A stretch of DNA of 64,000 bases from a virus (lineage: Duplodnaviria; Caudoviricetes). The stretch lies in IMG/VR virus record IMGVR_UViG_3300031992_000030; one strand, given 5' to 3'. Position 1 is the first letter of the stretch. Every line of letters begins with the position of its first letter. A model generated the notes under the pieces. The model was not told the DNA's origin. It worked only from the letters and a program-made list of their open reading frames with translations, and did not search any database. Positions 1-61,942 of this stretch are shown here, one piece after another. Position numbers and translations under genes: made by a program.

Positions 1-3000
1 TGAAGATTATGTAAGTAGTGATTTTGTTTCACATCACCTTGATGATATTGCTGAAGCTGCTACTGGTAGTGAAACTGCTATTGAAAATTTAAGAAGTAAA
101 TTATCTCAAGATATAATAGCCAATATTGTAGCAGAAAATCATATTTACGACCAAGATTTAAGAGCAGAATTAGAGGGATTATCTGCCGATTTGCCCGATA
201 TAGAAGTTGGTGCTACTCTGACTACTGGTAATTTCTTAGCTACACTAAATGATTTAATTACCCAAACAGGAATGACTGTAGATCAAATTAATGCCCTTTG
301 TGATTCAATGGGATTTGAAGCTACATTTGTTACTGAGCCACAACCAGTTACTAGAACAGGACATGAAACTGTTACAACTACAGAATTTTCAGCAGATGGA
401 AGAGTAATTAATGAAGGTACTCCTTATGAACAAACTATTACTCTTCCAACCTTTACCACAAGAACATATTCTGGCGACGCTTATGATTATACTGATTATA
501 TTGATGCTATTGCTATGAGCACTGATGGTAGTACACCTCAAATTCAATCAATTACAAGAAAACCAAGTGCATCGCATAGTAATTATTCTTCATCCAATGG
601 TGGCGGAAAAAGCCATGGTAAGTCTGGTGGAGGTGGAGGAGGTAAAACTTCACAGAAAAAACCTAAAGATCCAACAGGTGAGATTGAGCGTTATCATGTA
701 ATTAACAACCAAATCGAAGACAATGAAAAGGCTCTTACAAGACTTTCAAAGGCTAAAGATAGAGCTTATGGTAAAGCAAGACTTAGTGCTATGGATGCTG
801 AAATCGCTAAACAGCGTGAATCAGTTGAATTAGCAGAGAGAAAACTCCAAGAGGTTGAGAAATATCTTGAACTTGATAGTGGAGCGATTGCGGCCTTCGG
901 TGCGAAGTTCGACGCGAACGGAACCATTGTTAATTATGACCAGCTCATGCAGGAACAGATTGACAAGTACAATGCAGCGGTTGAGGCTTACAACAATAGT
1001 ACGATGGACGAAAATGCCGAAGCAGTATTCCAGCAAGCCGAAGATGATTACAATGCATTTACTGAAGCACTTAAGCAATATGAGGAAACTCAAGACTTGT
1101 GGTACGAGCAGGCTCAGGCAGTTGCTGATGCCAAGGCAGAAGTATTACAACTTGAACTTGAGAAGACTAATTATAAGGTTGAAATTGGTATCGAATGGGA
1201 AGAAGAAGATATTGCAAGATTAGACTTTATGCTCAAGAGAATTGAAGATGATGCACACAAAGCAGCTGAAGCAATTGGACTTCTTGGTGAGAGAACTGTT
1301 GATGCTATGGATAAGTACAATGTTTATCAGCAAGGCTTTGCAGATACTTTAAGAAATCTTGGTGTTGGTAATGCCGAAGATGTAATCGCAAGAGCATCTG
1401 CTGGTGAAGATTTGTATGGTATGATTGGTAGTATAGTTGACCCTAACGAAATGGCTCAAGCCGTTGATCAGATGGATGATTACATTTCCAACATGATGAG
1501 TTCTCTTGAGGACGCACAGGATAGTGTTGACCAAGCATTTGAAAAGGTTAAAGATTTGTTTAATGAGAATATTAAGCAAATGGACACTTACATTGAGAAG
1601 ATTGAGTTCTGTCAGAAGATTACCAAGTCTTATATGAATATTGTCGATATTGTAGGTAAGAAATCACTTGGTATTACTAATGAAGTGTTAAGAACTTTCA
1701 ATGCTGAATCTGTAACACAGGCGATTAACAATGAGGCCGCAGCAAGAGCCAAAATGGATTCGATTCAGGCCCAGTTGATGGAATCTCAGGCACGACTCGC
1801 GCAAGCCTCTGGCGAACTTGAGCAAAAGTATTGGAACGAAATCATTGAGGAACAAGAGAAAGAACTCATTTCCGCAACAGAAAACTTCCATCAGGCTTGG
1901 GAAGATGCTTTACAGGCAAATCTTGAAGCCTTTGAAAACAATATTGAGTTAGTTGTAGAAGACTTCTCTGATGCTGTTGGTGATCTTAACGCAATGAAGG
2001 CCGAATGGGATCTCCAGAAGAGTCTTACAGATATGTGGGAGCCAGAGTACGAGAGATGGCATCAGTTATCAGATTTAATTAATGATATTAACAAATCTGT
2101 TGATGAAAATGAAAATCTTAAATACAGACAAGACTTACTTGATATTGAAACAGAAATCGAGCAATTACAAGAGCAAGAAGCAAAACTTAGTGAATATGAC
2201 TTGAATTACCTTAGACTTAGATATGAATCTAAGTTGGCCGAGATTGCACTCGAAGAAGCCCAGGCCGCAAAATCTCAAGTTAGAATGTCAAGAGATAATG
2301 AAGGTAATTACAGTTATATTTATACTGCTGATGAAGAAGCCGTTAACAATGCCGCTGATGATTATAGAAACAAAATCTATGAGATGGAAAAGGCTAATGA
2401 GGAATACATTGATACTCTTCAACAACAGCTTTTGGAAATGCACGACAAAATGCTTGAAGATATTAAAGAAGCAGGCGAATTGTATGGCGTAGGCACTCAA
2501 GCTTGGTTAGACGCAATTGCTAGGATTCAAGAAACTTATGTTGGTCAGTCAGAGTTTGTACAATCTCAGATGCAAAATGTATTTACTAACAATCAGAGAC
2601 TTCGTGATGAAGACATCGTTCAGTACATTGCTTACACAGGTGATATAGCAGCAGAAAATGTAGATTTACAGACAAGTTTTGGTGATACTTATATGGGTAT
2701 CCAGACACAAACTGATGATTTACAAACTTACTTCAATGACACTTGGTTACCAGCACTTAATGAAACATTTAGTAACGCAATTCTTAAAGGTGAAGAATAT
2801 TCACAGCAAAACGAAGTTGCTATGGAAACTGCTGGAACTACAATGGACGGTTTCAGAGATAGAGCTTCACAAGATATTCTTGAAGTTACTGAGAAAACTA
2901 CTGAACTTGCTGAAGAGACACAGAATTATGGTGAAACTGCAATAGACCAGTTTGCGCAGGCTGCACGTGCTTGGCAAACAGGTCCTGGTGCTTTACTCGA

Positions 3001-3700
3001 TTCAATCAATGCCCAGGCTCAAGCAATAGCAAATTTGGCTCAACAGTATACAAGTTTGAAGAGTCAATTAGATGCGGCGGCTGAATCAGCAAGACAATTT
3101 GCGGCTGCTCAGTCACAAACTAGAAGTAATAGTTCCATTTCTTATGTTTCCTCTCCTTCCAATGGAGGAAATATTAAGGGAGGTGGGCCAGGCCCGAATT
3201 CTATGGCATCAGGAACACCACCACCGGGATTGGATAGAGAATTTCAAGCTCTTTTGGCTAGATATAATCCTAACGATCCTAATGATCCTACCAAAAAAGA
3301 TCCTAACGCTTTGCTTAGAATTAGAGAACTTCAGGATATGTATCCGGGGTACTTTCTCACCTCCTTTGCTTCTGGTGGTTATACTGGCGATTGGGGTGAT
3401 GATGGTCGTTTCGCAGTTCTCCATCAGAAAGAGCTTGTACTCAATGCAAAGGATACCTCAAATATCCTTACTGCAGTAGATGTAGTAAGACAATTAGCTA
3501 GTTCAATCGACTTCAACACTATGACTGCAGGTCTTGCTACTGCAAGTATTAAGTCTGCTTCTGGTAATTCCGGAACACTTGAACAAAGAGTTGAAATCAC
3601 TGCTAACTTCCCTAACGCAACTGATAGAAACGAAATTGAACAGGCATTCCAGAATATCGTGAACATGGCTTCACAATATGCACAGCGTAAAAACGATTAA
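1..3700 (+). CDS. Tail tape measure protein, C-terminal part (5' end outside the window)
   Basis: The frame is open from nt 2, so the TTG at 191 is not the real start. Long Ala/Glu/Gln helical protein with the TMP-type C-terminal motif FASGGYTGDWG...AVLHQKELVLNA, followed by tail genes. Confidence 0.85.
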   Translation, partial: EDYVSSDFVSHHLDDIAEAATGSETAIENLRSKLSQDIIANIVAENHIYDQDLRAELEGLSADLPDIEVGATLTTGNFLATLNDLITQTGMTVDQINALCDSMGFEATFVTEPQPVTRTGHETVTTTEFSADGRVINEGTPYEQTITLPTFTTRTYSGDAYDYTDYIDAIAMSTDGSTPQIQSITRKPSASHSNYSSSNGGGKSHGKSGGGGGGKTSQKKPKDPTGEIERYHVINNQIEDNEKALTRLSKAKDRAYGKARLSAMDAEIAKQRESVELAERKLQEVEKYLELDSGAIAAFGAKFDANGTIVNYDQLMQEQIDKYNAAVEAYNNSTMDENAEAVFQQAEDDYNAFTEALKQYEETQDLWYEQAQAVADAKAEVLQLELEKTNYKVEIGIEWEEEDIARLDFMLKRIEDDAHKAAEAIGLLGERTVDAMDKYNVYQQGFADTLRNLGVGNAEDVIARASAGEDLYGMIGSIVDPNEMAQAVDQMDDYISNMMSSLEDAQDSVDQAFEKVKDLFNENIKQMDTYIEKIEFCQKITKSYMNIVDIVGKKSLGITNEVLRTFNAESVTQAINNEAAARAKMDSIQAQLMESQARLAQASGELEQKYWNEIIEEQEKELISATENFHQAWEDALQANLEAFENNIELVVEDFSDAVGDLNAMKAEWDLQKSLTDMWEPEYERWHQLSDLINDINKSVDENENLKYRQDLLDIETEIEQLQEQEAKLSEYDLNYLRLRYESKLAEIALEEAQAAKSQVRMSRDNEGNYSYIYTADEEAVNNAADDYRNKIYEMEKANEEYIDTLQQQLLEMHDKMLEDIKEAGELYGVGTQAWLDAIARIQETYVGQSEFVQSQMQNVFTNNQRLRDEDIVQYIAYTGDIAAENVDLQTSFGDTYMGIQTQTDDLQTYFNDTWLPALNETFSNAILKGEEYSQQNEVAMETAGTTMDGFRDRASQDILEVTEKTTELAEETQNYGETAIDQFAQAARAWQTGPGALLDSINAQAQAIANLAQQYTSLKSQLDAAAESARQFAAAQSQTRSNSSISYVSSPSNGGNIKGGGPGPNSMASGTPPPGLDREFQALLARYNPNDPNDPTKKDPNALLRIRELQDMYPGYFLTSFASGGYTGDWGDDGRFAVLHQKELVLNAKDTSNILTAVDVVRQLASSIDFNTMTAGLATASIKSASGNSGTLEQRVEITANFPNATDRNEIEQAFQNIVNMASQYAQRKND

Positions 3701-3704
3701 AATT

Positions 3705-3738
3705 AAGGGGATAGGTTTTATGCCTATCCCCTTTTTTA
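3705..3738 (+). terminator. Rho-independent terminator after the TMP gene
   Basis: AAGGGGATAGG / CCTATCCCCTT stem followed by a T-run. Confidence 0.85.
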
Positions 3739-3812
3739 TTTGGTCGATATTATACAATAATCAGTAAATTTTTTTGAAGTAATAATAGAATATGGAGAGA
3801 AAGGAGAAAACT

Positions 3813-7574: not shown

Positions 7575-7585
7575 AGGAGACAAAG

Positions 7586-7912: not shown

Positions 7913-9388
7913 ATGGCAAAACTTAACCCGCCAATTTTGGAAAATTTAGTTCCACCTATGGTTAAACCAGAAGCAAGTACAACGGCAAGAGTAGTTATTC
8001 CCTATGTCATGAATCGCTCAGTTGGTATTAGTGGAGTTTCTGGCATAAAAGTCAAATTTAGAACAATCGGTGGTATACAGATAGGAGAAGTTGAAGATGC
8101 TTCAAGTTTTACTGAAACTGAAGTTGTAATAAATGCACTTGATATATCAAAATTTAATGTTGGTCAATACTACAAAGTGCAAATAGCCTACGTAGATGGT
8201 TCTGATGAAATAGGTTACTACTCAAGTGTAGGAATAATTAAATATATTGCTGCACCTTCTATAACTTGTACACAGAGAACAGACTTGGGCGATTTTTATT
8301 ACAGAGGCGTTTATATACCAAATGAAGAAGATAAGACAGAAAAATTTTATTCTTCTCATTTTGAATTATATAAAAATGATGTGTTGATAGAATCAACAGA
8401 AGAAAAATTGCATATGAATTCTGATAGTGATTACGAAGATTACGAGATTCGTAGAGATTTAGATTTTGATAATAATACTTATAAGGTAGAATTTGTTGCT
8501 ACAAGTGTAAATGGATATGTGGGTGCGGCCCTCGTTAATGTAGTACCGCAAGAACTAGTTCCTTTTCCCACAGAGACTCAATTAGTAGCAACTAATAATT
8601 ACGAGAATGGTTATGTGCAGTTAACTACAACAGGAGAAGCATTATCCAATAACTACACTTACACTATTTGGAGAAAAGCAAATAATTCAGAAAATTGGGA
8701 AAAGTTAAACATTATTTTCATTCAACCATATCAAGATTTTACTGTTGAGCACGGCATTACTTATATTTATGCTATACAAGGTATTCCCACTGGCGCGGGA
8801 AACGCGACCGAGAAGCTGCTCGCCCAACCACTGGCCGCACGTTTCGAGGATATTTGTTTAGGAGATAAAGATAAGCATTTAAGAATACAATACAATCCTA
8901 AAATTAATTCTTTCAAGCGAACAGTTCTTGAATCTAAGATTGACACTATTGGTAGTAAATATCCTATGATTATGAGAAATGGAAATGTCGATTATCGAGA
9001 AATTGGTATAGGAGGTCTTATTTCTTATCTCATTGATCCAGATGAGTTGTTTATGGATTTTGAGGACGAACATGGCAATAAGTATCGTCCAAGCACGGTT
9101 ACAGACAATACAAATGTTCCACCTTTACCAACCGCACTCTCTGATGAAAATAGATATAAAGAAAGATTATTTAGAGAAGCAGTACTTACTTGGCTTACCA
9201 ATGGTGAACCAAAGTATTTCCGTTCTCCAACTGAAGGAAACCATATTATCAGAGTTATGAATGTAAGTTTAACCCCTAATGATACTTTAGGCAGACTTAT
9301 TTATTCATTCTCTGCTACTGGTTATGAAATAGATGATGATACATATGACAATTTGGTAAAAGACAGATTGGCAGGATGGGAGGCGTAA
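7913..9388 (+). CDS. Minor tail protein (Ig/FN3-like domains plus a distal-tail-like C-terminus)
   Basis: AAGGAGG RBS; FN3-like motif YQDFTVEHGITYIYAIQ; C-terminal WLTNGEPKYFRSPTEGN...YSFSATGYEI; tail operon context. Confidence 0.6.
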   Translation: MAKLNPPILENLVPPMVKPEASTTARVVIPYVMNRSVGISGVSGIKVKFRTIGGIQIGEVEDASSFTETEVVINALDISKFNVGQYYKVQIAYVDGSDEIGYYSSVGIIKYIAAPSITCTQRTDLGDFYYRGVYIPNEEDKTEKFYSSHFELYKNDVLIESTEEKLHMNSDSDYEDYEIRRDLDFDNNTYKVEFVATSVNGYVGAALVNVVPQELVPFPTETQLVATNNYENGYVQLTTTGEALSNNYTYTIWRKANNSENWEKLNIIFIQPYQDFTVEHGITYIYAIQGIPTGAGNATEKLLAQPLAARFEDICLGDKDKHLRIQYNPKINSFKRTVLESKIDTIGSKYPMIMRNGNVDYREIGIGGLISYLIDPDELFMDFEDEHGNKYRPSTVTDNTNVPPLPTALSDENRYKERLFREAVLTWLTNGEPKYFRSPTEGNHIIRVMNVSLTPNDTLGRLIYSFSATGYEIDDDTYDNLVKDRLAGWEA

Positions 9389-9389
9389 T

Positions 9390-11825
9390 ATGGCTAACAA
9401 TCCTTTGCTTGACCAAGATTTTTTATACGAATTATTTAAGCAAAAAAGTCGTGAAGTCTATGCTAAAATCATTTTGTTAGATTTACAAGAAATGCCTAAA
9501 GCAGACTTCAGTGGTAGAGTTACTCAAGGTTCAGTCAATCTTGATGGTAACTCTGCCATTAGACGAACTTGTTCCTTGACCCTGGCCGCAGAATTGAATG
9601 AGACAGATTCTTATATGTGGGCATTAAATTCAAAGTTTAAACTTGAAGTAGGTTTAAAAAATGTTATTAATCCTAATTACCCAGAGATCATTTGGTTTCC
9701 AATGGGTATATATTTTATTACAAATTTTAATCTAAATAAAAACACTACTCAAACCACTATTAGCATTAGTGGTAAAGATAAAATGGCTATGCTAACCGGT
9801 GATTTAGGTGGTGTGGTTCCCGCACTTACTTGGGACTTTGGTTCTATTGAGGTTACCGATGCAGAAGGAAACACAACTGTAGAAAAGTATTTAATTAAGA
9901 AAATAATAAGAGAACTTGTACATGAATTTGCAAAAGAGCCTTTCCAAAATATTATTATAAATGATTTGGAAGATAATGGTCTTGAGTTGCTTCAGTACAA
10001 TTACTCTCAGCCAATGTATTTGATTAGAGACGTAGAAGCTGATATTGTTACTCAGTTCACTTTAAGTCCAAACCAAGGTACTTACTATATTGTGCTTAAA
10101 AATGGTGATGAATGGACACCTACTTCTCAACAAATTTCTTTTAATGACCCTTCATTTATTTTTGATAATAGAAATAGTGTTATAGGTCAAGGTGAAGAAC
10201 CAACTTACTTCACAACAGAAGATTATTTGTCATCAGAAAATATTAGACCTTTTACTTGTATAAAAGCAGAAAAGGGAGATACAATAGGTTATAGACCGAC
10301 AGAGTTAGTTTATGCCGGTGACCTTATTGCTTCTGTTGGTGAATCAGTAGTTTCTGTTCTTGATAAAATCAAAAATATGTTAGGTGATTATGAATATTTT
10401 TATAACCTTGATGGACAGTTTGTTTTCCAAAGAAAAAGAATTTCATTAAGTCACCCTTGGAATCAATTAAGTCGTCAAAATGATGATAATAAAGAAATTT
10501 ATATTGATTTATATGCCGATGAATATGATTATAGTTTTGATGAAAACACAATAGTTTCTTCATTTAGCAATACACCAAATATTGCTAATGTAAAAAATGA
10601 TTTTATTGTTTGGGGCGAAAAGAAAGGAATAAGTGGTAATAAACAGATTCCTGTTCATTGTCGCTATGCTATACAAACTAAGCCGCAATATTACAAAGCA
10701 GTAGATGAAACAGTCTATGTATCTAAAGAATATGCGGCCGCTCATGAGACTGCTGGTATGAAAGTAGTAGATTGGAGAGAGATTATATATCAAATGGCAT
10801 TAGATTATAGAAAACATATGCACGATGCCGCTACTCCAGATGCTGACGTATACACTACCGATGAACTTATCCCAACCATAGCCAGAAATAATCCAGATTA
10901 CTATCCAGATGGTAACACTGGTTATGAGCAGTTCTATACAGATATGGAGGGTTTCTGGAGGTTGTTATATAATCCAGAATATTTGGGTACTTATTCTATT
11001 GCTTTTGGTCTTACTCAAGAAAAATATAATGACCCAGATACTGTGGTTTACTATTTCAAGAATCAAGGTGGTGCTCCTTACCAAACCAATGCTTCTTACT
11101 ACAAGCGCAAAGGTGGTACTGAAGTTTATTATTATGCTGGTAAAGTTACAAGAGAAGAATTTGAAACACAAAGTCTTCTTTATTACTTGCCAGTGAACCC
11201 AAAGAGTAGTGGCAAGGCTTATGATAGCAATATTACTTATTTCTATCTTGACAATGATGATTACTACATGGATCCAAATAATGCAGACACTTTATACTGG
11301 AACAAAGAAATTTTCTCTAATCCAGAAAGTCTTATATTTTGGTTTGATTTTATAGATGTAGAAAGCAATAGTGAACTTTCTCAATATGCAATAGATAATA
11401 TTGGTTTAAGAACAATAGCTAAAAATGACAATGCAGTTAAAGCCGTAGTGTATAAAGATGTTCCTAATGTTTTATTTGTAGAAAATAAAGATGCAGAAGA
11501 AATTGCGGAATTAAAAACACAAAATACAGGTTATACAATTTTACCACTTAATGAAAATTTAACAAATGTTTTCTCAATGAGTGTTCAAGGTAAATCTGCC
11601 AAAGATGAAATTGACTCAATGATTTATAATAAGGCGTGTTGCTGTGAATCTATTACAATGAGTTGTGCCCCCATTTACAGCCTTGAACCAAATGCAAAGA
11701 TATATGTAAAGGATACCAAGGCCGGAATAAATGGAGCATATCTTGCTGATAAATTTAGTATTAATTTGGCTTATAACGGTATGATGAATATTACCGCTAC
11801 TAAGATAATTGACAGAATTATTTAA
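9390..11825 (+). CDS. Tail/baseplate hub-like protein (DUF5048-like N-terminus)
   Basis: GRVTQGSVNLDGNSAIRRTCSL and ISGKDKMAML motifs typical of Firmicute phage tail proteins; last structural gene before the holin. Confidence 0.55.
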   Translation: MANNPLLDQDFLYELFKQKSREVYAKIILLDLQEMPKADFSGRVTQGSVNLDGNSAIRRTCSLTLAAELNETDSYMWALNSKFKLEVGLKNVINPNYPEIIWFPMGIYFITNFNLNKNTTQTTISISGKDKMAMLTGDLGGVVPALTWDFGSIEVTDAEGNTTVEKYLIKKIIRELVHEFAKEPFQNIIINDLEDNGLELLQYNYSQPMYLIRDVEADIVTQFTLSPNQGTYYIVLKNGDEWTPTSQQISFNDPSFIFDNRNSVIGQGEEPTYFTTEDYLSSENIRPFTCIKAEKGDTIGYRPTELVYAGDLIASVGESVVSVLDKIKNMLGDYEYFYNLDGQFVFQRKRISLSHPWNQLSRQNDDNKEIYIDLYADEYDYSFDENTIVSSFSNTPNIANVKNDFIVWGEKKGISGNKQIPVHCRYAIQTKPQYYKAVDETVYVSKEYAAAHETAGMKVVDWREIIYQMALDYRKHMHDAATPDADVYTTDELIPTIARNNPDYYPDGNTGYEQFYTDMEGFWRLLYNPEYLGTYSIAFGLTQEKYNDPDTVVYYFKNQGGAPYQTNASYYKRKGGTEVYYYAGKVTREEFETQSLLYYLPVNPKSSGKAYDSNITYFYLDNDDYYMDPNNADTLYWNKEIFSNPESLIFWFDFIDVESNSELSQYAIDNIGLRTIAKNDNAVKAVVYKDVPNVLFVENKDAEEIAELKTQNTGYTILPLNENLTNVFSMSVQGKSAKDEIDSMIYNKACCCESITMSCAPIYSLEPNAKIYVKDTKAGINGAYLADKFSINLAYNGMMNITATKIIDRII

Positions 11826-13328: not shown

Positions 13329-13863
13329 CTGTTGAACCAAATCCGCCAGTTCTTTCGCCCTCTGTCTTGTCATCATCTGCAAGGAGGTACGATTTTATGA
13401 TGCCTTGGCCGATACAATCGCCTTTCTTCAAAAGAATTGGATATGGGGATAAGTTAATAATCTGAAAGAAAATATGTCCTTCATTATCTGGATTGTTATA
13501 ATAGTCAGTGTCAATAATTCCTACACCATTAGCAAGAATAAGCCAATACTTCATAGGACAAGAACTTCTAACTGAAAGCTCAAGGTAAGTGCCTTCGTCC
13601 AATTGTGCCTTAATACCAGTAGGCACTAAAGTTGTTCGAGCATTTGCGGCCTTGGTGACGTCGGCCATGTTATCTAGTGTCAATGGAAAACCAAGGCCCT
13701 GCCGCATAACCTCTTCAGTAATACAAGTACGCTCAATACCTATACTATCAACTATTATATCCTCCGCTACATAAAAATCGTAGCCAGCCGAACCTTTTGT
13801 TTTACGAACGGGAATAATTACTCCATCATCATCAGCATATTTGCTAATTTTCTCAAAACGCAT
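13321..13863 (-). CDS. dut: Trimeric dUTPase
   Basis: SAGYDF, RSS, GIIDTDYY, QGII and RTGGFGSTG motifs; start MRFEK at 13863. Confidence 0.93.
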   Translation of the reverse strand: MRFEKISKYADDDGVIIPVRKTKGSAGYDFYVAEDIIVDSIGIERTCITEEVMRQGLGFPLTLDNMADVTKAANARTTLVPTGIKAQLDEGTYLELSVRSSCPMKYWLILANGVGIIDTDYYNNPDNEGHIFFQIINLSPYPILLKKGDCIGQGIIKSYLLADDDKTEGERTGGFGSTGA

Positions 13864-18012: not shown

Positions 18013-21000
18013 CTTCGGCCTCTCCTTGATAACGCTCATATCTTAAAATCAAATCACCATCTTTTTCAATACCATCAATTTTATACAAATGATGTCCACC
18101 AGATGATGCATATTTCTTAGCAAAGAACTCTTCTCCTGTTCTTATACCTTGTACTACTATCTTACTTCCTCTATTAAACCAAGACTTTTCTTTAATTGTC
18201 TTAGTCCCATCGGGATTTCTTACTGAAATTTGCTTGTCATATAAACTAAACAAACCTTTTGACATTTTTACTGTTACTACTCCCGTCGGGGTCAAAAGTG
18301 ACACAGTGGACTTGTTCTTGTCCTTCGCGATACAAGTGCCGCAAATCTTTTTAAGAACAAACATTTTAATCTCTTTATCACCCTTCGTAAAAGTTCTATC
18401 CACTATTGGGTCTTCTGGCATACTGAAGAAGTCTGCAAAACCGTATTTTGCTGCATTAATATTCTTCAATGGATGTTCATGATAGTAGAAACACAATGCG
18501 TCCATTTCCCAATCTGAAATAATACCTTTTGCGTACTTATTCCAATCGTCTAAGAATATCAACTCATTTAATTTTACCAATGTTTCTTCTTTGTTTGCAC
18601 TTAACCATTTTCTTAATGTATCCATATACTTCTGATACACATTATCCCAAGAAGTTTTGCTAATAATAAAGTTCTGATCAACGATATTATCTGCTCCAAT
18701 TTCAACTAAGAAGTTAATTGCTCTTTCATCAAGTTGATATTTATCAGTTCCAAACTTACACATAGCTTTTAAATATCTATTAAATTCAAAAACTCTAACT
18801 GCAAGTTTCATATCTGCTTCTTCTGTTGGTACAAGATTGTATTTTATCAATCCTGCCATATTTTGCAAAGTTAATCTCTTTTTCTTGTCACAAGTATTCC
18901 ATATAAACCAGGCCATACAAATTTTTCTTTCCATAAAGGAATCAAATGCTCCACCTTTAATTAAAGAAATCATAACTTGTTTTGTAGGCTTAACTCTGTC
19001 ATAAAAATCTTGAACAGAACGATAAGGTCTATTTTCAATAATCTTCATAACAATTTCATCACCTACATTTGCCAAACTTTTTAATCCGCAGAAGATAGAA
19101 CCTTCTTCTTTGTTTGGCTTAAACTCATATGCCGATTCATTTATATCAGGAAGTTTTACATTTATTCCCGAATTTTTCATCTTGTTAATTGTAATTGCGA
19201 CCTTGTTATAATCTGTACCAGTTCCAATACCACCAGAATCTGTAATCGCGCAAGCACAATTCCAATAGATAATAGGATAATTGAAACACAAGTTCATTTC
19301 TTGAAGTCCTATCAATGAATAAGCCAAAGTATGAGACTGGTTAAATCCATAACCTTTACTCATTGAGATAAGAACTTCCCACACATACTTTGCAAAGTTT
19401 TCTTTAACTCCCTTTTCCTTTGTTACTTGATAAAATTCTTTTGTCAATTCTTCAAATTCTTTAGGGTTCTTCTTTGCAATAGACTTTCTTAACTTATCTG
19501 CCCAAGTAAGCGAGAAACCTCCAAGTGCGGGCAGTTGTACTAAACTCATGAACTGCTCCTGTGCTATACACAAACCGTAAGATATACCTACTATCGGTTC
19601 AAGAATAATCTTTTCATTTATTCCCAAACCATAAGAAGCTAACTCTCTATCCCATGCACTTGGATCTCTCTTGAATCTTGCTAACTTATCAGTTGGCATT
19701 TCTGTTGAACCAGGCTGGGCCATAAGTCTAATTGTTGAGTTCAAAATTGCTAAATCGTCTACTGAAGTTGGCTTAAGAGTTGCAATACCCTTAATTCCAC
19801 TCTGCTTCTCCATCTGGAACAATGATTGAATCTGATGATTCCAAATCATTTTCCACATATCTTGATTATCTCTATTAAGTTTATAAATTCCAATAGTATT
19901 TTCATATCTATCTCTTAAACTTAAATTTTTATCAATATATCCATCTTCTGTTAACAAATCAAGACAAGTATGTATCTTATCCAAAGCTTCAACTGAAAGA
20001 AGGTCATATTTAATCAAACTTACTGCTTCATCATCGTGGAGATCAAATTGAGTTATAATATCTCCATTCGGTGCCCTCATTAATGCTGTTGAATTAGTAA
20101 AATCTTCATCAACAAAGATAACTCCTCCAGCGTGTTCTCCAATTCTACAAATAAGTCCTTCTACTTTTTGAGCGACTTTCCACAATTCCGGGTTGTTATT
20201 CATTTCTTTAACAAATAATGGAACTGGATCAAAACCATTTTCTTCGTCACCATAATAACATTGATGTAAGGTTCTAATTTGTCCTCTATCTGCCGGAACG
20301 AGTGAAGATATATATGCAGCCTCATCTACATCTATACCCAAACCACGAGCTGCAGTTTGAATTGCTGACTTTGACTTTTCGGTACCAAAAGTAGCAACAT
20401 TACATACTCTATCTAAACCATAAACTTCACGAAGTTTATTAAGTACATCGCCTCTGCGGCCGCCCTCGATGTCGACATCAACATCCAAAACAGATACACG
20501 ATCAGGGTTCAAGAAACGCCATGGGAAAGTCTTTGTTGTTTCAGCGAGAGGATTGATCTGGGTTATACCTAACACATACAACAGGATAAATCCTACACCG
20601 GAGCCACGGCCGCACCCTACCAATGAACCTGCTTCCCAACATACATCAATAATTCTTTGGAGATTTAAGAAGTATGCTGACCATTCTGCATTATTTACTC
20701 TTGAAGAAGTCCAAGTCATTTCGAGGTTATTATTTATTTCATCATAAGCCTCTTGGTTTTGTAAGTCTGCATGACTTTCTATACCATTTATAATTGCATC
20801 TACCAATTTCTTATCAGAGTTAAATTCAGAGTTATTAAAATCAGCTAACTTCGGAATAAGTTCAATATATCTCTTCTTCTTATCTTCTGGTACATACTTC
20901 TGTTCAACCCAAGGCAAATTAGGTATTTTCAATTCTTTTGCTAATTCATAATCTTCACATTTATCTTTAATTTCTTTTATTGCTTCATAAGCCTTGTCAA

Positions 21001-35398: not shown

Positions 35399-35430
35399 TA
35401 AAAGAGGGGGTGAAGTGTCCCCCACCCCCT
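35399..35430 (-). terminator. Terminator
   Basis: AGGGGGTG / CACCCCCT stem with an A-run. Confidence 0.7.
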
Positions 35431-35452
35431 ATCTCCTATATCTTAATTCAGA

Positions 35453-38096: not shown

Positions 38097-40418
38097 TTAT
38101 GTTTTAGATATCGAATTAATATCGCCCTTAATAAGTGCATTACCAACAGAGGTTCTACTTAAAAGAGGAATTTCTTTGGCAGAGATACATATGGAGTTAT
38201 TCGTACCTATAATGAGAACTGAGTCTTCATCTGAGATTAAGGCACCCCCCGCAATCTCTGTCTTTGTTAACTTTATACCCTTGCCACCACGTTTCTGTGT
38301 AACAAGTTCAGTTAACTTAATTTTCTTACCGGTACCATTTGTATTAAACAAACCAAGAGTGTCATTAGTATCTCTAATAGGAAGAGCAGATACTACATAA
38401 TCTTCTGGATTTAAGTTGATACCCTTTACACCCGCGGCTGATCTGCCGGTAGGAGTTATATCTGTACTCTTAAACTTAATGCCCATACCATTTCTGGTTA
38501 TGATTACTATATCTTCGTCTGAAAGAAGACTTACAGATACAAGATGGTCTCCTTCTGCAAGGTTAATTGCGGCGAGGCCTGTTTTCTTTCTTGTTTTAGT
38601 AAATTCTTCCAACTTTGTTTTCTTAACGACACCATTTTGAGTTACAAACAGTACATATTTTGCTTCTGTACCATGAACTATTGAATAAATCAAACTTGGC
38701 TCTTCACCCTGTTCCATCTCGACTAAAGCATGAACAGAAGTACCAACAGATGTATTAGTTCCTATAGGGATGTTATCTACAAGAATCCTATACATCTTTC
38801 CCTTATTTGTAAATATCATAAGAGAATCAATAGTATTTGTTCTAATGGTTGCAACTGTAATATCACCTGTTGTCTTAACTCCCTTGCCATTTTTACGTTG
38901 TGTGCGGAAGCTCGTCGCTGGGATCCTCTTGATCAGGCCAGATTCGGTCATTGTTACGATGCACTTTTCCGGTTCAACATAAACAATTTCCTTCTCTTCC
39001 TTTGTTGGAGTATCCAATTGAAGTAATTCTGTTCTTCTATCGTCTCCATACTTTTCAACGATTTTGTGAAGTCTTTCCTTAATAATGTCTTTAACTCTTT
39101 CAACATCAGAAAGAATAGCCTTCATGTCGGCTATCTTTTCAATCAACTCCTTCTTCTCTTGCTCAAGTTCAATCTTCTCCAACTTAGCAAGACTTGACAA
39201 TCTCATAGCGAGAATAGCTTTCGCCTGTACGTCATCCAGACCATACTTTGCACAGAGGGCACTGGCCGCACAGGTGCTATTTTCAGATTTCTTAATTAAC
39301 TGAATAACATTATCAATATCTTCAAGAGCAATTAACAAACCTTCAACAATATGAAGTCTTGCTTCGGCTGCATCCAAATCAAATTGAATTTCTTTTCTAA
39401 TGCACTCAATATTATGCTCAACATATGTCTTACAACAATCCTTAAGACTCATTAAAGTAGGAACCTTGTTTACTAATGCCACTTGGTTATAAGCATATGA
39501 CTTCTGTAAATCAGTCTTTGCGAATAACTTTCTCATTACTACTTCTGGGTTGGTGTCTTTGTTACATTTAATTAAAATCTTAACACCCTTATTATTAGTC
39601 TGGTCTAATACCTCACTAATTCCCATGTTATCAGTTTCAGTAACACTATCAATATCATCAAGAATTTTCTCAATAGTGGTTTCATAAGGAATTTCAGTTA
39701 TAGTAATAATCTGTCCCTTAACTGAATATTTTGCTCTTACTTTTACTGAACCCTTACCCGACTTCATAATATTAGCAAAGTCATTCTTATTTATAACTAC
39801 TCCACCTGTTGGGAAATCAGGACCGGGAAGTGTAGGTTCCTCGCCATCCATATATGCTAAAATTGCTTTTTCAACTTCTCTTAAGTTATGACAACCCCAC
39901 TTACAGGCCATTGCGACTCCAATTCCTGCATTTGGGTTACATAACAAATTGGGGAAAATAGCCGGAAGAATAGTAGGCTCTTCATCAGCATCATCATAAG
40001 TTGGCATAAAAGGAACATTATTCTTTTTAATTCCAGCTAACATTCCTTCTTCACTTAACTTGGCGAGACGTCCTTCTGTATATCTATGTGCGGCTGGGCC
40101 ATCTCCATTAATTGAACCTTGGTTACCATGGAAATCAATCAATGGATATCTCATTACCCAATCCTGAGATAAACGAACAAGTGCTTCATAAATTGAACTA
40201 TCTCCGTGAGGGTGAAATGAACCCATTACATCTCCGACAATTCTTGCATTTTTTACATAAGGCTTATTAGATGTTCTACCATTTGCATAAGCACCATATA
40301 AAATTCGTCTTGCAACTGGTTTCAAACCTGTTACGTCTGGAATAGCACGATCCATATTTACCGCAGCAGCATAGTCTATAAAGTTTTGTGACATTTCATG
40401 TGTTAAATCTAAACTCAT
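38097..40418 (-). CDS. gyrA: Type IIA topoisomerase subunit A (gyrase-like)
   Basis: RAIPD..GLKPVARR, HPHGDSS, AAHRYTE, GPDFPTGG; beta-pinwheel CTD with QRKNGKG and QKRGGKG. Confidence 0.9.
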   Translation of the reverse strand: MSLDLTHEMSQNFIDYAAAVNMDRAIPDVTGLKPVARRILYGAYANGRTSNKPYVKNARIVGDVMGSFHPHGDSSIYEALVRLSQDWVMRYPLIDFHGNQGSINGDGPAAHRYTEGRLAKLSEEGMLAGIKKNNVPFMPTYDDADEEPTILPAIFPNLLCNPNAGIGVAMACKWGCHNLREVEKAILAYMDGEEPTLPGPDFPTGGVVINKNDFANIMKSGKGSVKVRAKYSVKGQIITITEIPYETTIEKILDDIDSVTETDNMGISEVLDQTNNKGVKILIKCNKDTNPEVVMRKLFAKTDLQKSYAYNQVALVNKVPTLMSLKDCCKTYVEHNIECIRKEIQFDLDAAEARLHIVEGLLIALEDIDNVIQLIKKSENSTCAASALCAKYGLDDVQAKAILAMRLSSLAKLEKIELEQEKKELIEKIADMKAILSDVERVKDIIKERLHKIVEKYGDDRRTELLQLDTPTKEEKEIVYVEPEKCIVTMTESGLIKRIPATSFRTQRKNGKGVKTTGDITVATIRTNTIDSLMIFTNKGKMYRILVDNIPIGTNTSVGTSVHALVEMEQGEEPSLIYSIVHGTEAKYVLFVTQNGVVKKTKLEEFTKTRKKTGLAAINLAEGDHLVSVSLLSDEDIVIITRNGMGIKFKSTDITPTGRSAAGVKGINLNPEDYVVSALPIRDTNDTLGLFNTNGTGKKIKLTELVTQKRGGKGIKLTKTEIAGGALISDEDSVLIIGTNNSICISAKEIPLLSRTSVGNALIKGDINSISKT

Positions 40419-42549: not shown

Positions 42550-43530
42550 TCAAATTTTAGTAGTATATTTAAGTGAAATATATTGTTCTGTTTCAATTTT
42601 TCCCCAACCATTTATTTCTTCAAGAATAGTTACAACATAACCAAAAGGAAGTGGACTTCTTACAGTAGGATAATTTGTACCTGGGCCTTTTCTTACATTA
42701 AGACCTGACTTTGAATTTACTTTTGCTTTGTAACCTATTGTAGTCTTTGCGGCAATTGCTGCTGCGAGAGCAGCTTCTGACTTAGGTCCCCATAATCCGT
42801 CTGGATCCATTCCAGCCTTTTTCTGGAAATCAAGTACAGCAGCTTGAGTATTCTTACCCCAATCACCATCTTCTGTAAGTTTATATCCTACCTGATTTAA
42901 TCCATGCTGAATCTTCTTAACTTCCTCTCCCTTTGAACCAAGGTGTGGATAAGGAATTGGGTCAGAAGTAGGCACTGGTGAAACTTCTGCTTTGGAGCCG
43001 TTCTCAATAGCAATTGCAACGTGGTGCTTTTCATTAAGAATAATATCTCCTTCAAGTAAGTAATCACCTGATGTAAGGTACTTCTTCTCGGTCAGAATCG
43101 TGAACTCGCCACTGGCCGCACACAAACTCTTCAAATCGCCAGTATATGCCAATTTATTTTCTCTATTTTTATTTCTCATTTTCTCTTCTGGTGTACCGGT
43201 AGCAACAATAACGGCAGCAACGAGAGCGCTACAATCTGTTTCTGTTGGTTTTGTAATTTTAGAAAAATCATTACCAACTTTTTTAACTTCTGTTAAAAGT
43301 TTTTCTCTCTCCCACTGGTCATATCCAATATTGTCATTTGCACAAGCGGCTTTCATTGCTTCAGCCATTCTATGTGCCTTTTTTCTATCTTTTGGTCGTA
43401 TAACTACGTCCCAACCAGTTTTACCATAACTATACCAATTAGTAATTTTTACCTCTTTTCCATTTTGGTCTCCGGCCTTGCCGCCGTGAGCCTGTCCCTT
43501 TTCATCTATTGAGGCTTGTGCTATTCTCAT
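42550..43530 (-). CDS. Endolysin: NlpC/P60-like Cys peptidase plus PG-binding domain plus SH3b
   Basis: IGYDQ, DCSALV and HHVAI catalytic motifs; GSKGEEVKKIQ...DGDWGKNT...DGLWGPKS; LNVRKGPGTNY...GW. Confidence 0.85.
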   Translation of the reverse strand: MRIAQASIDEKGQAHGGKAGDQNGKEVKITNWYSYGKTGWDVVIRPKDRKKAHRMAEAMKAACANDNIGYDQWEREKLLTEVKKVGNDFSKITKPTETDCSALVAAVIVATGTPEEKMRNKNRENKLAYTGDLKSLCAASGEFTILTEKKYLTSGDYLLEGDIILNEKHHVAIAIENGSKAEVSPVPTSDPIPYPHLGSKGEEVKKIQHGLNQVGYKLTEDGDWGKNTQAAVLDFQKKAGMDPDGLWGPKSEAALAAAIAAKTTIGYKAKVNSKSGLNVRKGPGTNYPTVRSPLPFGYVVTILEEINGWGKIETEQYISLKYTTKI

Positions 43531-47972: not shown

Positions 47973-49190
47973 TTAAGTCCAACTATAAGTCGGAATTCCA
48001 TTAGTTACTGTGCAAGTTAAAGTATATGTTCCATCTGTTGTAGGGGGGTCTGGAAGCATTGTATTAAGACTTTTACTTCCCATAAAAGTTAAATCACCAG
48101 CAATCATCTCATTACCAGACCAATCAAGAGTGCGGGCATTACTACGAGTGGTAACAGCGGGTGTTACAGAAGAATCATAAGTTCCATTTCCAATAATTTC
48201 AGCATATACATCTTGATTATCTTCTATATTATATCTACCACCAGCGTGTTGATTTTCACTAGCTGCTATGGTACCATAACCTTCTGCGTGAGAATTTTGT
48301 GCCGTTGCTTTACAACCTGCACCTTCCGCATGTGCTTGTGCAGCCGTAGCTTGAGTACCTCCACCTTCTGCGTGAGATTGCATACCAGAAGCAAGTGTAC
48401 CTGCACCTTCTGCGTGAGAATCATCGCCAGTTGCTCTACAACCTGCACCTTCTGAGTGTGACTGTGCTCCACTTGCAATGCTACCAGCACCTTCGGCATG
48501 GGCACTAGTATTTGAAGCTTGTGTAAAAGTACCTTCAGCATGGGATGAATTACCAGAAGCTGTAGTACTAGTACCCTCAGAATGAGCATTTGCACCAGAA
48601 GCTGTAGTACTAGTACCCTCAGAATGAGTATTTGCAGCAGAAGCGGAAGTACTTGAACCTTCAGCATGTGCATTTGTAGCAGAAGCAGTACAACCATTTC
48701 CTTCAGCATGTGCTCTTTGCGCTGAAACAGTATTATTTTGTCCTTCTACATGTGAAACTGCTCCATTAGCAGTTATAGTATTACTATAACCTTCTGCATG
48801 AATGTTAGCAGATAAAACAGTAGGGTCTATTGTGTGATTAGCACCTTCTATATATTGCTTATTTTCCCATTTTTCAGTTGTAGAATTATATTGTAAAAGC
48901 TGATTTGCGGCGGGGTTAGTTATCGTCACGTCGGTTAGGTCACTGAGTACCTCACGACCGCCGGCCGCAAGTTCGTCAATTGCTCCTTGTACATTGGTTG
49001 CGGTTAATCCAGATTCAGAATTATCATATTCCATATCTTCTGTTGGTAATGCTCCCGCAAGTGCTTCAATATTTATTCTTCTATCTTCATATGTTTCTGG
49101 GTTATCACTAACTTTGTGAGCCAAATATAAGCCATCTTGTGAACCAACTTCACTTGAACTAATAGTTTCTAAACTACTCAATTTTGCCAT
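47973..49190 (-). CDS. Fibre/adhesin with YadA-head-like (Hep_Hag) repeats
   Basis: 14-aa SHAEGxGTxASG repeats; start MAKLSSL with AAGGAGG RBS; YDNSESGLTATNVQGAIDEL trimer module. Confidence 0.75.
   Translation of the reverse strand: MAKLSSLETISSSEVGSQDGLYLAHKVSDNPETYEDRRINIEALAGALPTEDMEYDNSESGLTATNVQGAIDELAAGGREVLSDLTDVTITNPAANQLLQYNSTTEKWENKQYIEGANHTIDPTVLSANIHAEGYSNTITANGAVSHVEGQNNTVSAQRAHAEGNGCTASATNAHAEGSSTSASAANTHSEGTSTTASGANAHSEGTSTTASGNSSHAEGTFTQASNTSAHAEGAGSIASGAQSHSEGAGCRATGDDSHAEGAGTLASGMQSHAEGGGTQATAAQAHAEGAGCKATAQNSHAEGYGTIAASENQHAGGRYNIEDNQDVYAEIIGNGTYDSSVTPAVTTRSNARTLDWSGNEMIAGDLTFMGSKSLNTMLPDPPTTDGTYTLTCTVTNGIPTYSWT
48552..48635. repeat. 42-bp tandem duplication (41/42 identical)
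   Basis: ACCAGAAGCTGTAGTACTAGTACCCTCAGAATGAG(C/T)ATTTGC occurs twice. Confidence 0.9.
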
Positions 49191-52381: not shown

Positions 52382-53095
52382 ATTAAATTTTATAATAGAT
52401 TTTAATAAGTTTCCATCTTGTGCTATATAAGTTACATCTTTATTCAAACAATGAGAATTCCAATAGGGAGTATCTCTATAAACATAAGTATGTGATGGAT
52501 TAACTCGTGGGTCTAAAATGAATAATTCTCGTAATTCTTCATAGTCCAGTCCATATTTGTTGCATATATCAAAAAACTCATTACAAAAACTGACCTTTGC
52601 GGCCAGCCATGAGTTCTCCATGAACTTGACCATTTCCGCGTATTGACTGTCTACGATTCTAAATTTGTGCGACCCATCGTAACAATGTTGCAGGATTTGT
52701 TGTACATCAATACAATCTTTTCTATCGCCGCCAAGTATTGTAAAATTAAAATCACAATTATTACAATGTTGTGTATTGCCATAATATTCTGGACTAACAA
52801 CAATATGTTTACCGTATTTCTCTCTCAATCTATCACAAGTACCGATTGGACACGTAGATTTAATTACATAGATTTTACTATTATTTTCTTGTATAGCATT
52901 TTCTACCTCTGTCGTATCCAAAGTAGTACCCTTCAACGGGGTGTCAACACAGATAAACGCCAGGTCATATTGTTCGCAGGACCTATGGCCGCACCGGTAA
53001 CCCTCATACTTATCATATACTTCTGGTTTTAATCTTTCTAACTCTTTATAAAGATTTCGACCGACAACGCCATATCCTACAATTAGAACATTCAT
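52364..53095 (-). CDS. UDP-glucose/GDP-mannose dehydrogenase family protein (no C-terminal domain)
   Basis: GYGVVG, CVDTP, IKST, SPEY, AEMVKFMENSWLAAKVSFCNE, DPRV and SHCLNKD (catalytic Cys). Confidence 0.8.
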   Translation of the reverse strand: MNVLIVGYGVVGRNLYKELERLKPEVYDKYEGYRCGHRSCEQYDLAFICVDTPLKGTTLDTTEVENAIQENNSKIYVIKSTCPIGTCDRLREKYGKHIVVSPEYYGNTQHCNNCDFNFTILGGDRKDCIDVQQILQHCYDGSHKFRIVDSQYAEMVKFMENSWLAAKVSFCNEFFDICNKYGLDYEELRELFILDPRVNPSHTYVYRDTPYWNSHCLNKDVTYIAQDGNLLKSIIKFNRGRLL

Positions 53096-53667
53096 TTTAT
53101 TTCGCCTCTCTTTTTTCTCCAAGTTATACTACCTTCTCTATTGGAATTATAGAAATAAAGCAATCTTCTTAAATAGCCTCTACTATGAGGAATTTTACTT
53201 AAATCTTTTTGAAATTGAGCATCTGTATTACACTCAAGTTTTTCATCAAATTTAGGTACTATTTCTCTACGATAAATAGCTTTCCAAATTGCTCTGTTTA
53301 TTGGACGTTCCATAATTTGCATTGTTCTGGGGTCTGCCCAACTAAAAAGAATTTCATCTTTCCCAATTTCATCAATAGCTTTTAATAATTGTTCTACATA
53401 GTCCATAGAAATCATATCGTCACTATCTATAAAGGCAATATAATCTCCAGTAGCTTGTGCGATCCCAGCATTCCAGGCCGCACAAGCACCGAGATGTTCT
53501 TTATGTTCTATTATAAATTCGGAGAAAACATCAAAACGAATTTCATTACAACCATCATCAATAAGAATTACCTCAACCTCTTCTGTCTTTTGGATTTGTA
53601 ATTCTTTAAGAAGTTTAATTGTATATTCATATGTGTTGTAATAAGGAATTATAATAGAAAGTTTCAT
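53092..53667 (-). CDS. GT2 family glycosyltransferase
   Basis: SIIIPYYN, ILIDDG and YIAFIDSDD (DxD); ATGA-coupled to the dehydrogenase. Confidence 0.85.
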   Translation of the reverse strand: MKLSIIIPYYNTYEYTIKLLKELQIQKTEEVEVILIDDGCNEIRFDVFSEFIIEHKEHLGACAAWNAGIAQATGDYIAFIDSDDMISMDYVEQLLKAIDEIGKDEILFSWADPRTMQIMERPINRAIWKAIYRREIVPKFDEKLECNTDAQFQKDLSKIPHSRGYLRRLLYFYNSNREGSITWRKKRGEIK

Positions 53668-55731: not shown

Positions 55732-55804
55732 TTATTATTCCTCCTTTTGGTTAGATTTTACTTTAATATTAACACTTCTATTTTTTCTACACAGCCTTTT
55801 GGAA

Positions 55805-56422: not shown

Positions 56423-56440
56423 TTATTACCTCCTTTCATT

Positions 56441-57967: not shown

Positions 57968-57968
57968 T

Positions 57969-58676: not shown

Positions 58677-58821
58677 CTTCTCTCCTTTCTTGCGACAAGC
58701 CGGTCCTGAGAACTTTTTGATTAATTCTTGAGTGTCTCAGGACCACCGGCCGCACATATCTACCTCCTGTTATGTCAAAGATTTGGTGTATCAAATGGTC
58801 ACCTTGTATTTTATACCTCCA

Positions 58822-61330: not shown

Positions 61331-61411
61331 TTCGGTTTTCCTCCTTTTCAAATTTTTACCTTCATTGAATTTGAAATTTTATAGATATAAGTTTGTATTT
61401 TTTGTCCAAAT

Positions 61412-61445
61412 AAAAAAAGGACAGAAGATTTAAACTCTTCTGTCC
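61412..61445 (-). terminator. Terminator upstream of the adhesin cluster
   Basis: GGACAGAAGA / TCTTCTGTCC plus an A-run. Confidence 0.85.
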
Positions 61446-61451
61446 AATTTA

Positions 61452-61942
61452 TTACCAATATCTTGTTCCACAAAATTCACAGTAATTGTTTTTTCCTATC
61501 CTTCCTCCACAATAAGAAACCTACCTGTTTTCTGTTCTATTCTATCTGTTTTATACAACCCTTCTGGTTCTATTATATAAACGTGAACATAATCAGGATT
61601 GAGAGTAGAGAAATTAAGACCATATTCATTCACTATCTTCTCTCTCTTGGGTGATAAAATATTAGTTCTATCAGAAACTTGCCAGAAACCCTCGGTATCT
61701 CTCCAAACAAGAACACATTTTAGACTCATATACGGGACTTCCCAACATACAGGGACTAGTCCATTCAGATCTATAGTCAGGCCGCACGCTTCTGCAACAA
61801 GAGGAATTTTGGTATCTGAATTTTCAGTATAATCGAATTTGACAAAATGACTTGTTCTTGTAATTGCCAAACAATAGGGAGAAGCAGTTAATTCTTGTAA
61901 CCAATTAGGATTAACTCTTACATAATCACATATTAAACTCAT
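61452..61942 (-). pseudogene. Degenerate RNA-ligase-like N-terminal domain with a frameshifted C-terminal Zn ribbon
   Basis: W..EL...PY...FDY...SD...V.E..G...D....PVC resembles Rnl1 N-termini but lacks KxDG. The -1 frame at 61452-61517 reads SYCGGRIGKNNYCEFCGTRYW. Confidence 0.4.

Follow-up and report, generated by a model that had tools for sequence, protein, structure and literature searches.

Only a few DNA signals shape whole genomes. Iterated words such as Chi, the uptake sequences and HIP1 belong to this group, and for several of them no reader is known. The Chi-rich phages LLS and P1 carry one Chi per 1.9 kb, with Chi in the top rank of their k-mers (PMC12315714), and in Chi-rich lambdoid phages a Rec module is typically absent (PMC3784561, PMC12315714). 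Here we describe a phage clade that carries an iterated word of this kind with lineage-specific variants, one lineage of which adds a directional compositional footprint. The DNA analyzed, a 64 kb stretch (the window), belongs to an AT-rich phage of SPbeta-like type from the sheep gut (rumen). An earlier note on this DNA knew of no described phage system like it. A literature search for GGCCGCA itself found no description, but the statement needs amending in that Chi-rich phages are in print (PMC3784561, PMC12315714), though co-oriented, unlike the motif here.

DNA-level enrichment of GGCCGCA

The asymmetric 7-mer GGCCGCA occurs 27 times in the window when both strands are counted (16 sites on the + and 11 on the - strand; Table 1), at an average density of one site per 2.4 kb. 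On recount, all coordinates and strands listed in the earlier note proved exact, as did the extension to GGCCGCAC at 15 of the 27 sites and the starts of ACTGGCCGCAC at 8830, 39261 and 43111; every one-off variant listed there is present, and HGCCGCA sites come to 27 in total. Dinucleotide shuffles gave 0.99 expected copies (maximum 4), in line with the roughly one chance copy claimed at a GC content of ~33% judged by eye (34.2% as computed), while 300 synonymous codon shuffles within genes gave 2.75 (sd 1.35, maximum 8); the excess over chance is ~25-fold. Among the k-mers of the window, GGCCGCA is the top outlier of length 7 and GGCCGCAC that of length 8, and those ranking next overlap GGCCGCA. 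Weaker flanking preferences (C at -4, no T at -2, C at +1) take recognition to ~12 bp, with DNA-level preferences in either gene orientation; the bases preceding the word are not TGC. A copy-and-paste origin of the sites was rejected, the flanks in common being explained by these position preferences.

Table 1. The 27 sites in the window: word or longer form, coordinates of the 7-mer, strand, gene context, adjoining GC-rich tract and state in relatives.
Word	Position	Strand	Gene context	GC-rich tract	Relatives
GGCCGCA	889..895	-	antisense to gene 2-3700	5', ~30 nt, toward higher coordinates	
GGCCGCA	1735..1741	+	sense, Ala-Ala	no 5' tract	G003, G004: word inverted, 3 nt off
GGCCGCA	2263..2269	+	sense	5', ~27 nt	missing from G004
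GGCCGCAC	8524..8530	-	antisense	weak	
ACTGGCCGCAC	8833..8839	+	sense	5', ~47 nt, strongest	
GGCCGCA	9584..9590	+	sense		missing from G004
GGCCGCA	10733..10739	-	antisense		TGCGAAT in G003 and L002 (Ala-Ala vs Asn-Thr)
GGCCGCA	13645..13651	-	dUTPase gene, sense	5', ~54 nt	tract differs by clustered changes
GGCCGCA	20455..20461	-	DnaE, Gly-Arg frame		G333: site there; G312: near-cognate
GGCCGCAC	20608..20614	+	DnaE, Cys-Gly frame, antisense		G333: site there too
GGCCGCAC	23761..23767	-	sense	~25 nt	
GGCCGCA	25096..25102	-	RecD-like helicase gene		
GGCCGCAC	27847..27853	-	RecJ gene	~29 nt	
GGCCGCA	28030..28036	+	RecJ gene, antisense		
GGCCGCAC	30077..30083	+	DnaB gene (Walker A Ala-Ala), antisense		
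GGCCGCAC	34294..34300	-	ThyX gene		
GGCCGCA	34950..34956	-	GIY-YIG gene	~32 nt, GC3 0.9	
GGCCGCAC	36236..36242	+	ligase gene, antisense	~30 nt	
GGCCGCAC	37427..37433	+	ligase gene, antisense	~45 nt	
ACTGGCCGCAC	39264..39270	+	GyrA, antisense	~42 nt	
ACTGGCCGCAC	43114..43120	+	endolysin gene, antisense		
GGCCGCA	48963..48969	+		~56 nt	
GGCCGCA	52598..52604	-	sense		
GGCCGCAC	52987..52993	+	antisense		
GGCCGCAC	53476..53482	+	antisense	~31 nt	
GGCCGCAC	58748..58754	+	intergenic; directly 3' of inverted repeat GGTCCTGAGA...TCTCAGGACC		
GGCCGCAC	61780..61786	+	antisense		

All sites except the one at 58748 are coding (26 of 27), 12 in sense and 14 in antisense to their gene. A compositional or coding artefact, with GC-rich patches and Ala-Ala codon pairs producing the word and no cause at the DNA level, would draw on the Ala-Ala reading of 20 of the 26 coding sites (as xxG-GCC-GCA or xxT-GCG-GCC), on the sense pair GCC-GCA, which is raised also where no G precedes it, and on the 91 GC-rich patches in the window. 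Yet xxT-GCG-GCC, on the antisense side, is enriched to an equal degree (13 observed against 1.3 expected), the patches alone would by our estimate add about one copy, and the word fills 16% of its permissive coding positions, compared to a median of 0.83% for control words of the same composition. The artefact is thereby largely refuted, and we regard it as extremely improbable; since the word also passed the codon-preserving shuffle, the earlier dismissal of a codon-pair artefact in favor of a genome-wide DNA-level signal was upheld. Compared with relatives, the word alters amino acids, from Asn-Thr to Ala-Ala and from Ser-Lys to Gly-Arg.

A one-sided GC-rich tract at the sites

At 23 of the 27 sites the 5' flank is richer in GC than the 3' flank (p=3e-6), with a GC-rich tract that reaches ~30-50 nt on the 5' side only and has a median length of 32 nt there versus 6 nt 3' of the word. 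For GC3 the flanks read 0.54 (5') and 0.22 (3'), against 0.24 genome-wide, independently of gene orientation, and orthologous positions lacking the motif show no rise (GC3 0.22). A strong tract is confined to the window lineage; in the relatives G001 and G333 it is weaker, and at the sites of G312 and G339 it is absent. A hairpin, or pairing of the motif with its own flank, was rejected, folding energies equaling those of GC-matched controls, and degenerate motif copies within the flank were not found. The tract gives the orientation and the reach (~30-50 bp) of the transaction at the word, which makes the 27 defined sites a directly testable system. From the excess together with this one-sided stretch it follows that some DNA-processing machine probably reads GGCCGCA.

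One such machine could be the primase. The primase of phage SP6 is reported to recognize GCA, and a DnaG-type enzyme recognizing the 3' GCA of the word would synthesize an RNA primer spanning GGCC plus the 5' flank. The GC richness of that flank would then either have been selected because it stabilizes the primer-template hybrid or be a mark of primer-replacement synthesis. A primer on the template 5'-flank-GGCCGCA-3' would cover exactly the GC-rich side, the phage encodes a primase and DnaB, and the sites are spaced on the kilobase order of Okazaki fragments. Known primase sites are, however, trinucleotides, homologous primases (33-37% identity) occur also in relatives lacking the enrichment, and we saw no switch of strand of the kind expected at an origin: runs tests for strand polarity stayed at |z|<1.7 in five genomes, and a switch near 35 kb, a first impression, was significant in none of them. 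We consider preferred primase start sites quite unlikely. Motif pairs that face each other across a unit, seen in 4 of 4 cases in the window, were likewise discarded, as the arrangement fails in relatives.

Relatives, hosts and candidate readers

Some of the related SPbeta-like phages, in a patchy pattern, are also enriched in the core GGCCGC/GCCGC, with lineage-specific variants; a palindrome, GCGGCCGC, is dominant only in G333. The palindromes GCCCGGGC of G312 and CCGATCGG of G001 look like parts of longer repeats, given their few sites and the strong asymmetry of their flanks. In a phyletic profile of seven genomes, no window protein was common to all enriched genomes and missing from the non-enriched ones. 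This patchiness, with no tracking window protein, fits a host-linked or a fast-evolving reader.

A host system might also write the word rather than read it. In a repair-driven process, similar to HIP1 or very-short-patch repair, a host system for mismatch repair with sequence specificity, or one linked to methylation, would repeatedly turn near-cognates into GGCCGC(A); the word would pile up without serving any purpose, and its flank would record the repair patch. The core is an overlap of GGCC and GCNGC, both targets of SPbeta/phi3T-type methyltransferases, and GGCC-specific restriction exists in the host range, as G326 contains 0 GGCC against 115 expected and encodes a C5-MTase. The word is moreover strand-symmetric, lacks polarity and makes heavy use of permissive positions, and HIP1 attains a comparable excess with no settled function (PMC5861425, PMC4390886). 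Against such a drive, a C5-MTase (PF00145) was found neither among the window proteins scanned nor in the fragments of the close relatives G001-G005, where Vsr was not found either; across 46 relatives the methyltransferase goes mostly with zero copies of the word, and most enriched relatives, several complete genomes included, do not carry one. The suggestion of a methylation-linked motif in the earlier note thus finds no backing. Further, the codon-shuffle comparison gave no clear depletion of T-variants, and where close relatives differ in a site, the gain or loss involves several clustered bases and alters amino acids instead of being a single T/C change. The effect of E. coli Vsr is modest, and the 25-fold excess lies far beyond it. 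Hence, we think a repair drive unlikely.

Alternatively, a protein of the phage itself may bind or nick the sites, for instance a factor for the nucleoid, for partition or for packaging, or a site-specific nickase like those of T5, tf and phiKMV. The ~12 bp recognition in both gene orientations would suit such a protein, the tract corresponds to three to five helical turns, as a footprint might, the density resembles that of phage tf (14 nick sites in 46 kb), and the variants between lineages fit a co-evolving reader; two GIY-YIG nucleases and small winged-helix proteins are encoded by the phage. The phyletic profile speaks against this option, the nick sites known so far are all on a single strand, and parS- or matS-type sites are few and palindromic, which together leave it improbable. 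The phage gyrase, also proposed in the earlier note, fares worse. The window encodes both GyrA and GyrB, and a one-sided GC-rich arm might influence how the DNA is wrapped, but gyrase occurs in 37 of the 46 relatives, many of them not enriched, and the relatives closest in GyrA (52-57% identity) show only weak to moderate enrichment; its presence does not track the word, and preferred gyrase sites appear very unlikely.

On the host side, none of ~300 sampled Clostridia-type genomes (the phylum of Blautia only) showed a phage-like enrichment; the earlier note had named the same enrichment in the host genome, as simple compositional background, as a refuter. An apparent excess over the reversed control in G038, G125 and G093 was due to GC content and a CpG-poor control word. 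The endolysin gave a weak Blautia domain match only, and in exact-protein look-ups metagenome contigs were the sole matches. The nearest named phages infect Bacillus and Enterococcus.

A Chi-like reading and the known systems

We suggest, with a probability of roughly 0.37, that GGCCGCA works in a Chi-like manner, controlling a directional helicase-nuclease or recombination step. On this view the word would be under selection as a signal in double-stranded DNA, and its reader, a host AddAB/RecBCD-type enzyme or a phage enzyme, would act one way along the DNA, stop degrading on meeting the word and pass the DNA on to recombination or repair. With sites in both orientations about every 2.4 kb, the genome could be guarded against breaks anywhere. 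The 5' tract would be the footprint of the directional step, left either by GC-biased repair of heteroduplex starting at the site or by selection for a duplex stable enough to slow the enzyme shortly before or after it recognizes the word; if it is a conversion footprint, it would provide a natural gauge of biased gene conversion in a virus. The enrichment that withstands both dinucleotide and codon shuffles supports the Chi-like reading, and the reverse complement TGCGGCC contains a GCGG core in common with the Firmicute AddAB Chi sites, AGCGG and GAAGCGG. Context dependence is likewise one-sided in E. coli Chi (PMC5041463). Counting against it are the confinement of a strong tract to the window lineage and the ~300 genomes of one phylum that lack the enrichment. 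A bolder version, which we hold to be rather improbable, is a Chi private to the phage: the word would be a self-tag for the phage's own helicase-nuclease set (candidates are the RecD-like helicase with RecJ), phage DNA would be spared and recombined while word-less host DNA is degraded for nucleotides, and with the tract, GC-biased gene conversion directed by a site would have been seen in a virus for the first time.

Like Chi in LLS, P1 and MD8, GGCCGCA is a short, asymmetric, GC-rich word at about one per 2 kb (PMC12315714, PMC3784561), is the most over-represented k-mer with one-off relatives next in rank, is written into genes, and points to directional action. Chi of these phages is, by contrast, the known Chi of their host. 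Phage Chi is also strongly co-oriented (20:3 in LLS, 32:0 in MD8; AGCGG in the related SPbeta, 50:6) and often clustered near an end, whereas orientation is random here, which argues against a Chi-like reading. So do the recombination genes of the window phage (AAA_24/Sak4-like, RuvC and RecJ), as Chi-rich phages typically lack a Rec module.

The analogy with uptake sequences and HIP1 drawn in the earlier note is fair in strength and pattern. The uptake sequences of Pasteurellaceae (USS) and Neisseriaceae (DUS) are asymmetric words present in both orientations, in similar numbers and inside genes in permissive frames, USS with a one-sided compositional flank and DUS with lineage variants. They belong, though, to the host chromosome of competent Gram-negative bacteria, whereas no such enrichment turned up in the bacteria sampled here, and what uptake would mean for a phage is not obvious. 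The nicks of T5, tf and phiKMV resemble GGCCGCA in their 7-9 nt consensus, a density of about one per 3 kb genome-wide and an unsettled function (PMC3517423), but are confined to one strand, unlike a word that occurs on both (16:11). HIP1 (GCGATCGC) of cyanobacteria likewise has a 15- to 300-fold excess, lies mostly in genes and against codon preference, and is under selection; it, too, varies between lineages and lacks an agreed function (PMC5861425, PMC4390886). While HIP1 is a palindrome of cellular genomes tied to orphan methyltransferases, GGCCGCA is asymmetric, resides in a phage with no link to a phage methyltransferase, and is accompanied by a one-sided GC tract.

Excess of GGCCGCA and its coding context

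An earlier note had listed 27 copies of GGCCGCA in the window, whose GC content is 34.2%, and every coordinate proved exact (16 copies on the + strand, 11 on the - strand), as did the presence of the extensions and one-off variants that it described. Dinucleotide-preserving shuffles gave 0.99 copies (maximum 4) compared to the 27 real ones. Upon shuffling codons such that neither the proteins nor the codon usage of any gene changed, we obtained 2.75 copies (sd 1.35, maximum 8 in 300 shuffles), and the word thus withstands the comparison that the earlier note had proposed as a refutation test. GGCCGCA is the top outlier among the 7-mers of the window and GGCCGCAC among its 8-mers, and the base after GGCCGC is A in 27 of 33 cases. 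The general reading as a genome-wide cis signal is supported, and the observation behind it is confirmed and strengthened. The 8-bp palindrome TGTCGACA, with a SalI core, occurs at 3 window sites (6 counting both strands) vs about 0.6-0.8 expected.

Twenty-six copies lie inside genes, 12 in sense and 14 in antisense orientation, and the majority of them specify Ala-Ala whichever way they face, as a coding artefact would have it. That rival, in which composition or codon pairs would produce the word, is largely refuted. GCC-GCA makes up 21 of the 98 Ala-Ala dipeptides (5.4 expected), GCG-GCC another 13 (1.3 expected), and TGC-GGC 9 of the 29 Cys-Gly pairs, while the word occupies 26 of 163 protein-permissive positions (16%), against a median of 0.83% for 60 control words of the same composition. 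Amino-acid costs were seen at 10733 (Ala-Ala with the word vs Asn-Thr in the alternative) and in DnaE (Gly-Arg vs Ser/Leu-Lys). As the same flank preferences (C at -4, no T at -2, T rare at +1) occur in sense and antisense sites, recognition extends over about 12 bp of DNA. The signal sits at the DNA level, not at the coding level.

A GC-rich tract on one side of the word

With all sites oriented as GGCCGCA, the 30 nt preceding the word had a GC content of about 0.52, vs a background value of about 0.35 on the 3' side. The excess peaked at third codon positions (GC3 of 0.54 in the 5' flank and 0.22 in the 3' flank, vs 0.24 across the genome) and was smaller at first and second positions; it was equal in sense and antisense sites, with C and G both raised. 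This asymmetry was present in 23 of 27 sites (sign test 3e-6), and likelihood segmentation put the median tract length at 32 nt (IQR 26-50), vs 6 nt for the 3' flank. Of 206 GC-rich 7-mers compared, TGGCCGC, which overlaps the word, was the only one to be more asymmetric, and the asymmetry weakened with growing departure from the consensus.

We found no hairpin, extra motif copies or word pattern in the tract, and no flanks shared among sites beyond the position preferences, indicating that the sites are of independent origin. At motif-less orthologous positions of relatives, GC3 on the tract side was 0.22 vs 0.55 in the window, which ties the tract to the motif rather than to the protein. At site 1735, where the word stands in inverted orientation and 3 nt displaced in close relatives, the AT-to-GC differences switch side and again lie 5' of the word. 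Overall, this establishes a directional effect of 30-50 bp beginning at the word in the window lineage, a footprint that points to a process starting or ending at the site and moving one way. Primase start sites, a rival to the Chi-like reading that we rank first below, fit this geometry too.

The word in relatives and its candidate readers

Close relatives share 85-95% nucleotide identity with the window over 500-24800 and keep 8 of the 10 sites covered by relative G003; gains and losses of sites among them are clustered multi-base differences. A scan with a DnaE profile returned more than 80 relatives, and enrichment was patchy among 45 long records.

Copies of GGCCGCA and of its reversed control in relative genomes
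Genome	Motif	Reversed control
G339 (174 kb, complete)	40	3
G333	34	1
G312	30	2
G001	49	7
G341	15	0
G337	18	0
G325, G326, G351 (near-complete to complete)	0	0

The core common to the enriched relatives is GGCCGC/GCCGC, with GCCGC 4-7 fold enriched and the top or near-top 5-mer in the window, G339, G312 and G333, while the preferred extension differs by lineage (GGCCGCA-C in the window, C-GGCCGCA-A in G001, CGGCCGC in G333). G333 favours the palindrome GCGGCCGC (12 sites vs 0.1 expected), and the motif is present in this relative at both of the window's DnaE positions (56% amino-acid identity). Only in the window lineage is the one-sided tract strong; G001 and G333 show a weaker form of it, and G312 and G339 show none. 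We regard it as established that this word of double-strand DNA has been selected or driven, that it is orientation-free and that its variants are lineage-specific; a repair-driven, HIP1-like drive is one rival account of it. Another is a phage binding or nicking protein. Known nick sites are confined to one strand, which speaks against nicking, and the motif showed no strand polarity in any genome examined; nor did we find a window protein that was present in all enriched genomes yet missing from non-enriched ones.

Of the specific readers suggested earlier, neither methylation nor gyrase found support. Among 46 relatives surveyed, a C5-methyltransferase gene occurred in 5 of 6 zero-copy records and was missing from several enriched complete genomes, and neither such a gene nor Vsr was found in the fragments of close relatives. 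The complete zero-copy genome G326 (IMGVR_UViG_3300045988_142974, 172.9 kb; L113-L121), which has a C5-methyltransferase gene, contains 0 GGCC vs about 115 expected, with CGCG and CCGG likewise depleted; its lack of GGCC is classic restriction-site avoidance. Gyrase, whose sites are a further rival reading, was present in 37 of the 46 relatives, independently of enrichment.

Other repeats were seen in related genomes. The palindromes GCCCGGGC in G312 (L127-L131; 9 sites vs about 0.05 expected) and CCGATCGG in G001 (L012-L018; 6 vs about 0.25) have strongly asymmetric flanks and therefore probably lie within longer dispersed repeats. AACATCTAA/ACATCTAA, with about 55 copies in AT-rich surroundings of G339 (L104-L112; 8-9 expected), is perhaps a regulatory or promoter-like element. 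G315 (L132-L137) carries a different GC-rich variant, with 276 copies of CGCGCG, 54 of GCGCGCGA, GCGC and CGCG 3.5-4 fold enriched, and GGCCGCA at background. Outside these relatives, TGGCCCGG has been reported as an over-represented word of a Halanaerobium phage.

A possible Chi-like role

The window encodes DnaE (YorL-like), NrdD, primase, DnaB, ThyX, dUTPase, a RecD-like helicase, RecJ, an AAA_24/Sak4-like protein, RuvC, NAD-dependent ligase, GyrA/GyrB, an endolysin and two GIY-YIG nucleases, one fused to an HTH domain, adjoining DnaE and homing-endonuclease-like, the other with a long N-terminal region and adjoining thyX. Small winged-helix proteins are encoded at 33368-33709 and 35453-35728. 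Its source contig of about 131 kb has YorF and YorH homologues in its module, DnaE places it nearest, among named phages, to SPbeta-like Bacillus phages (37% amino-acid identity) and Enterococcus phages, and its DNA was found as several strains in sheep and bovine gut metagenomes. The broken frames of three genes in relatives could reflect assembly errors, inserted elements or recoding.

Coordinates of features in the window and in relatives
Feature	Position	Remark
GIY-YIG nuclease genes	window 21929-22453 and 34446-35396	two window genes
G/C-run hairpin (GGGGGTG...CCCCCACCCCC)	window 35399-35438	between GIY-YIG and small winged-helix genes; terminator-like in look
Perfect 10-bp inverted repeat GGTCCTGAGA ... 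TCTCAGGACC	window 58690-58745	directly 5' of the sole intergenic motif copy
DnaE of relative L002	L002:3584-7432	one in-frame stop
DnaE of relative L010	L010:3274-7076	not one single open frame
GyrA of complete relative G341	G341:C1:75149-77281	one in-frame TAG

About 300 sampled genomes from the phylum of Blautia showed no phage-like enrichment; a few of them seemed to exceed the reversed control, owing to higher GC and a CpG-poor control word. As a calibration, AGCGG, the Chi pentamer of B. subtilis, was not enriched in its phage SPbeta (NC_001884.1, L145-L151; 56 vs 62 expected) and had a strand bias of 50:6; GCCGC was not in excess there.

We tentatively rank first, at a probability of roughly 0.37, a Chi-like site that would control a helicase-nuclease or a recombination step. 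The lack of co-orientation and the phage's own recombination genes argue against it. In its favour, Chi action is directional, with one-sided context dependence, and the patchy spread, with no correlate encoded by the phage, fits a reader that is linked to the host or evolves fast. Furthermore, Chi-rich phages have a density and k-mer neighbourhood similar to those of the window motif, and the GCGG core of Firmicute Chi sites is present in the reverse complement, TGCGGCC.
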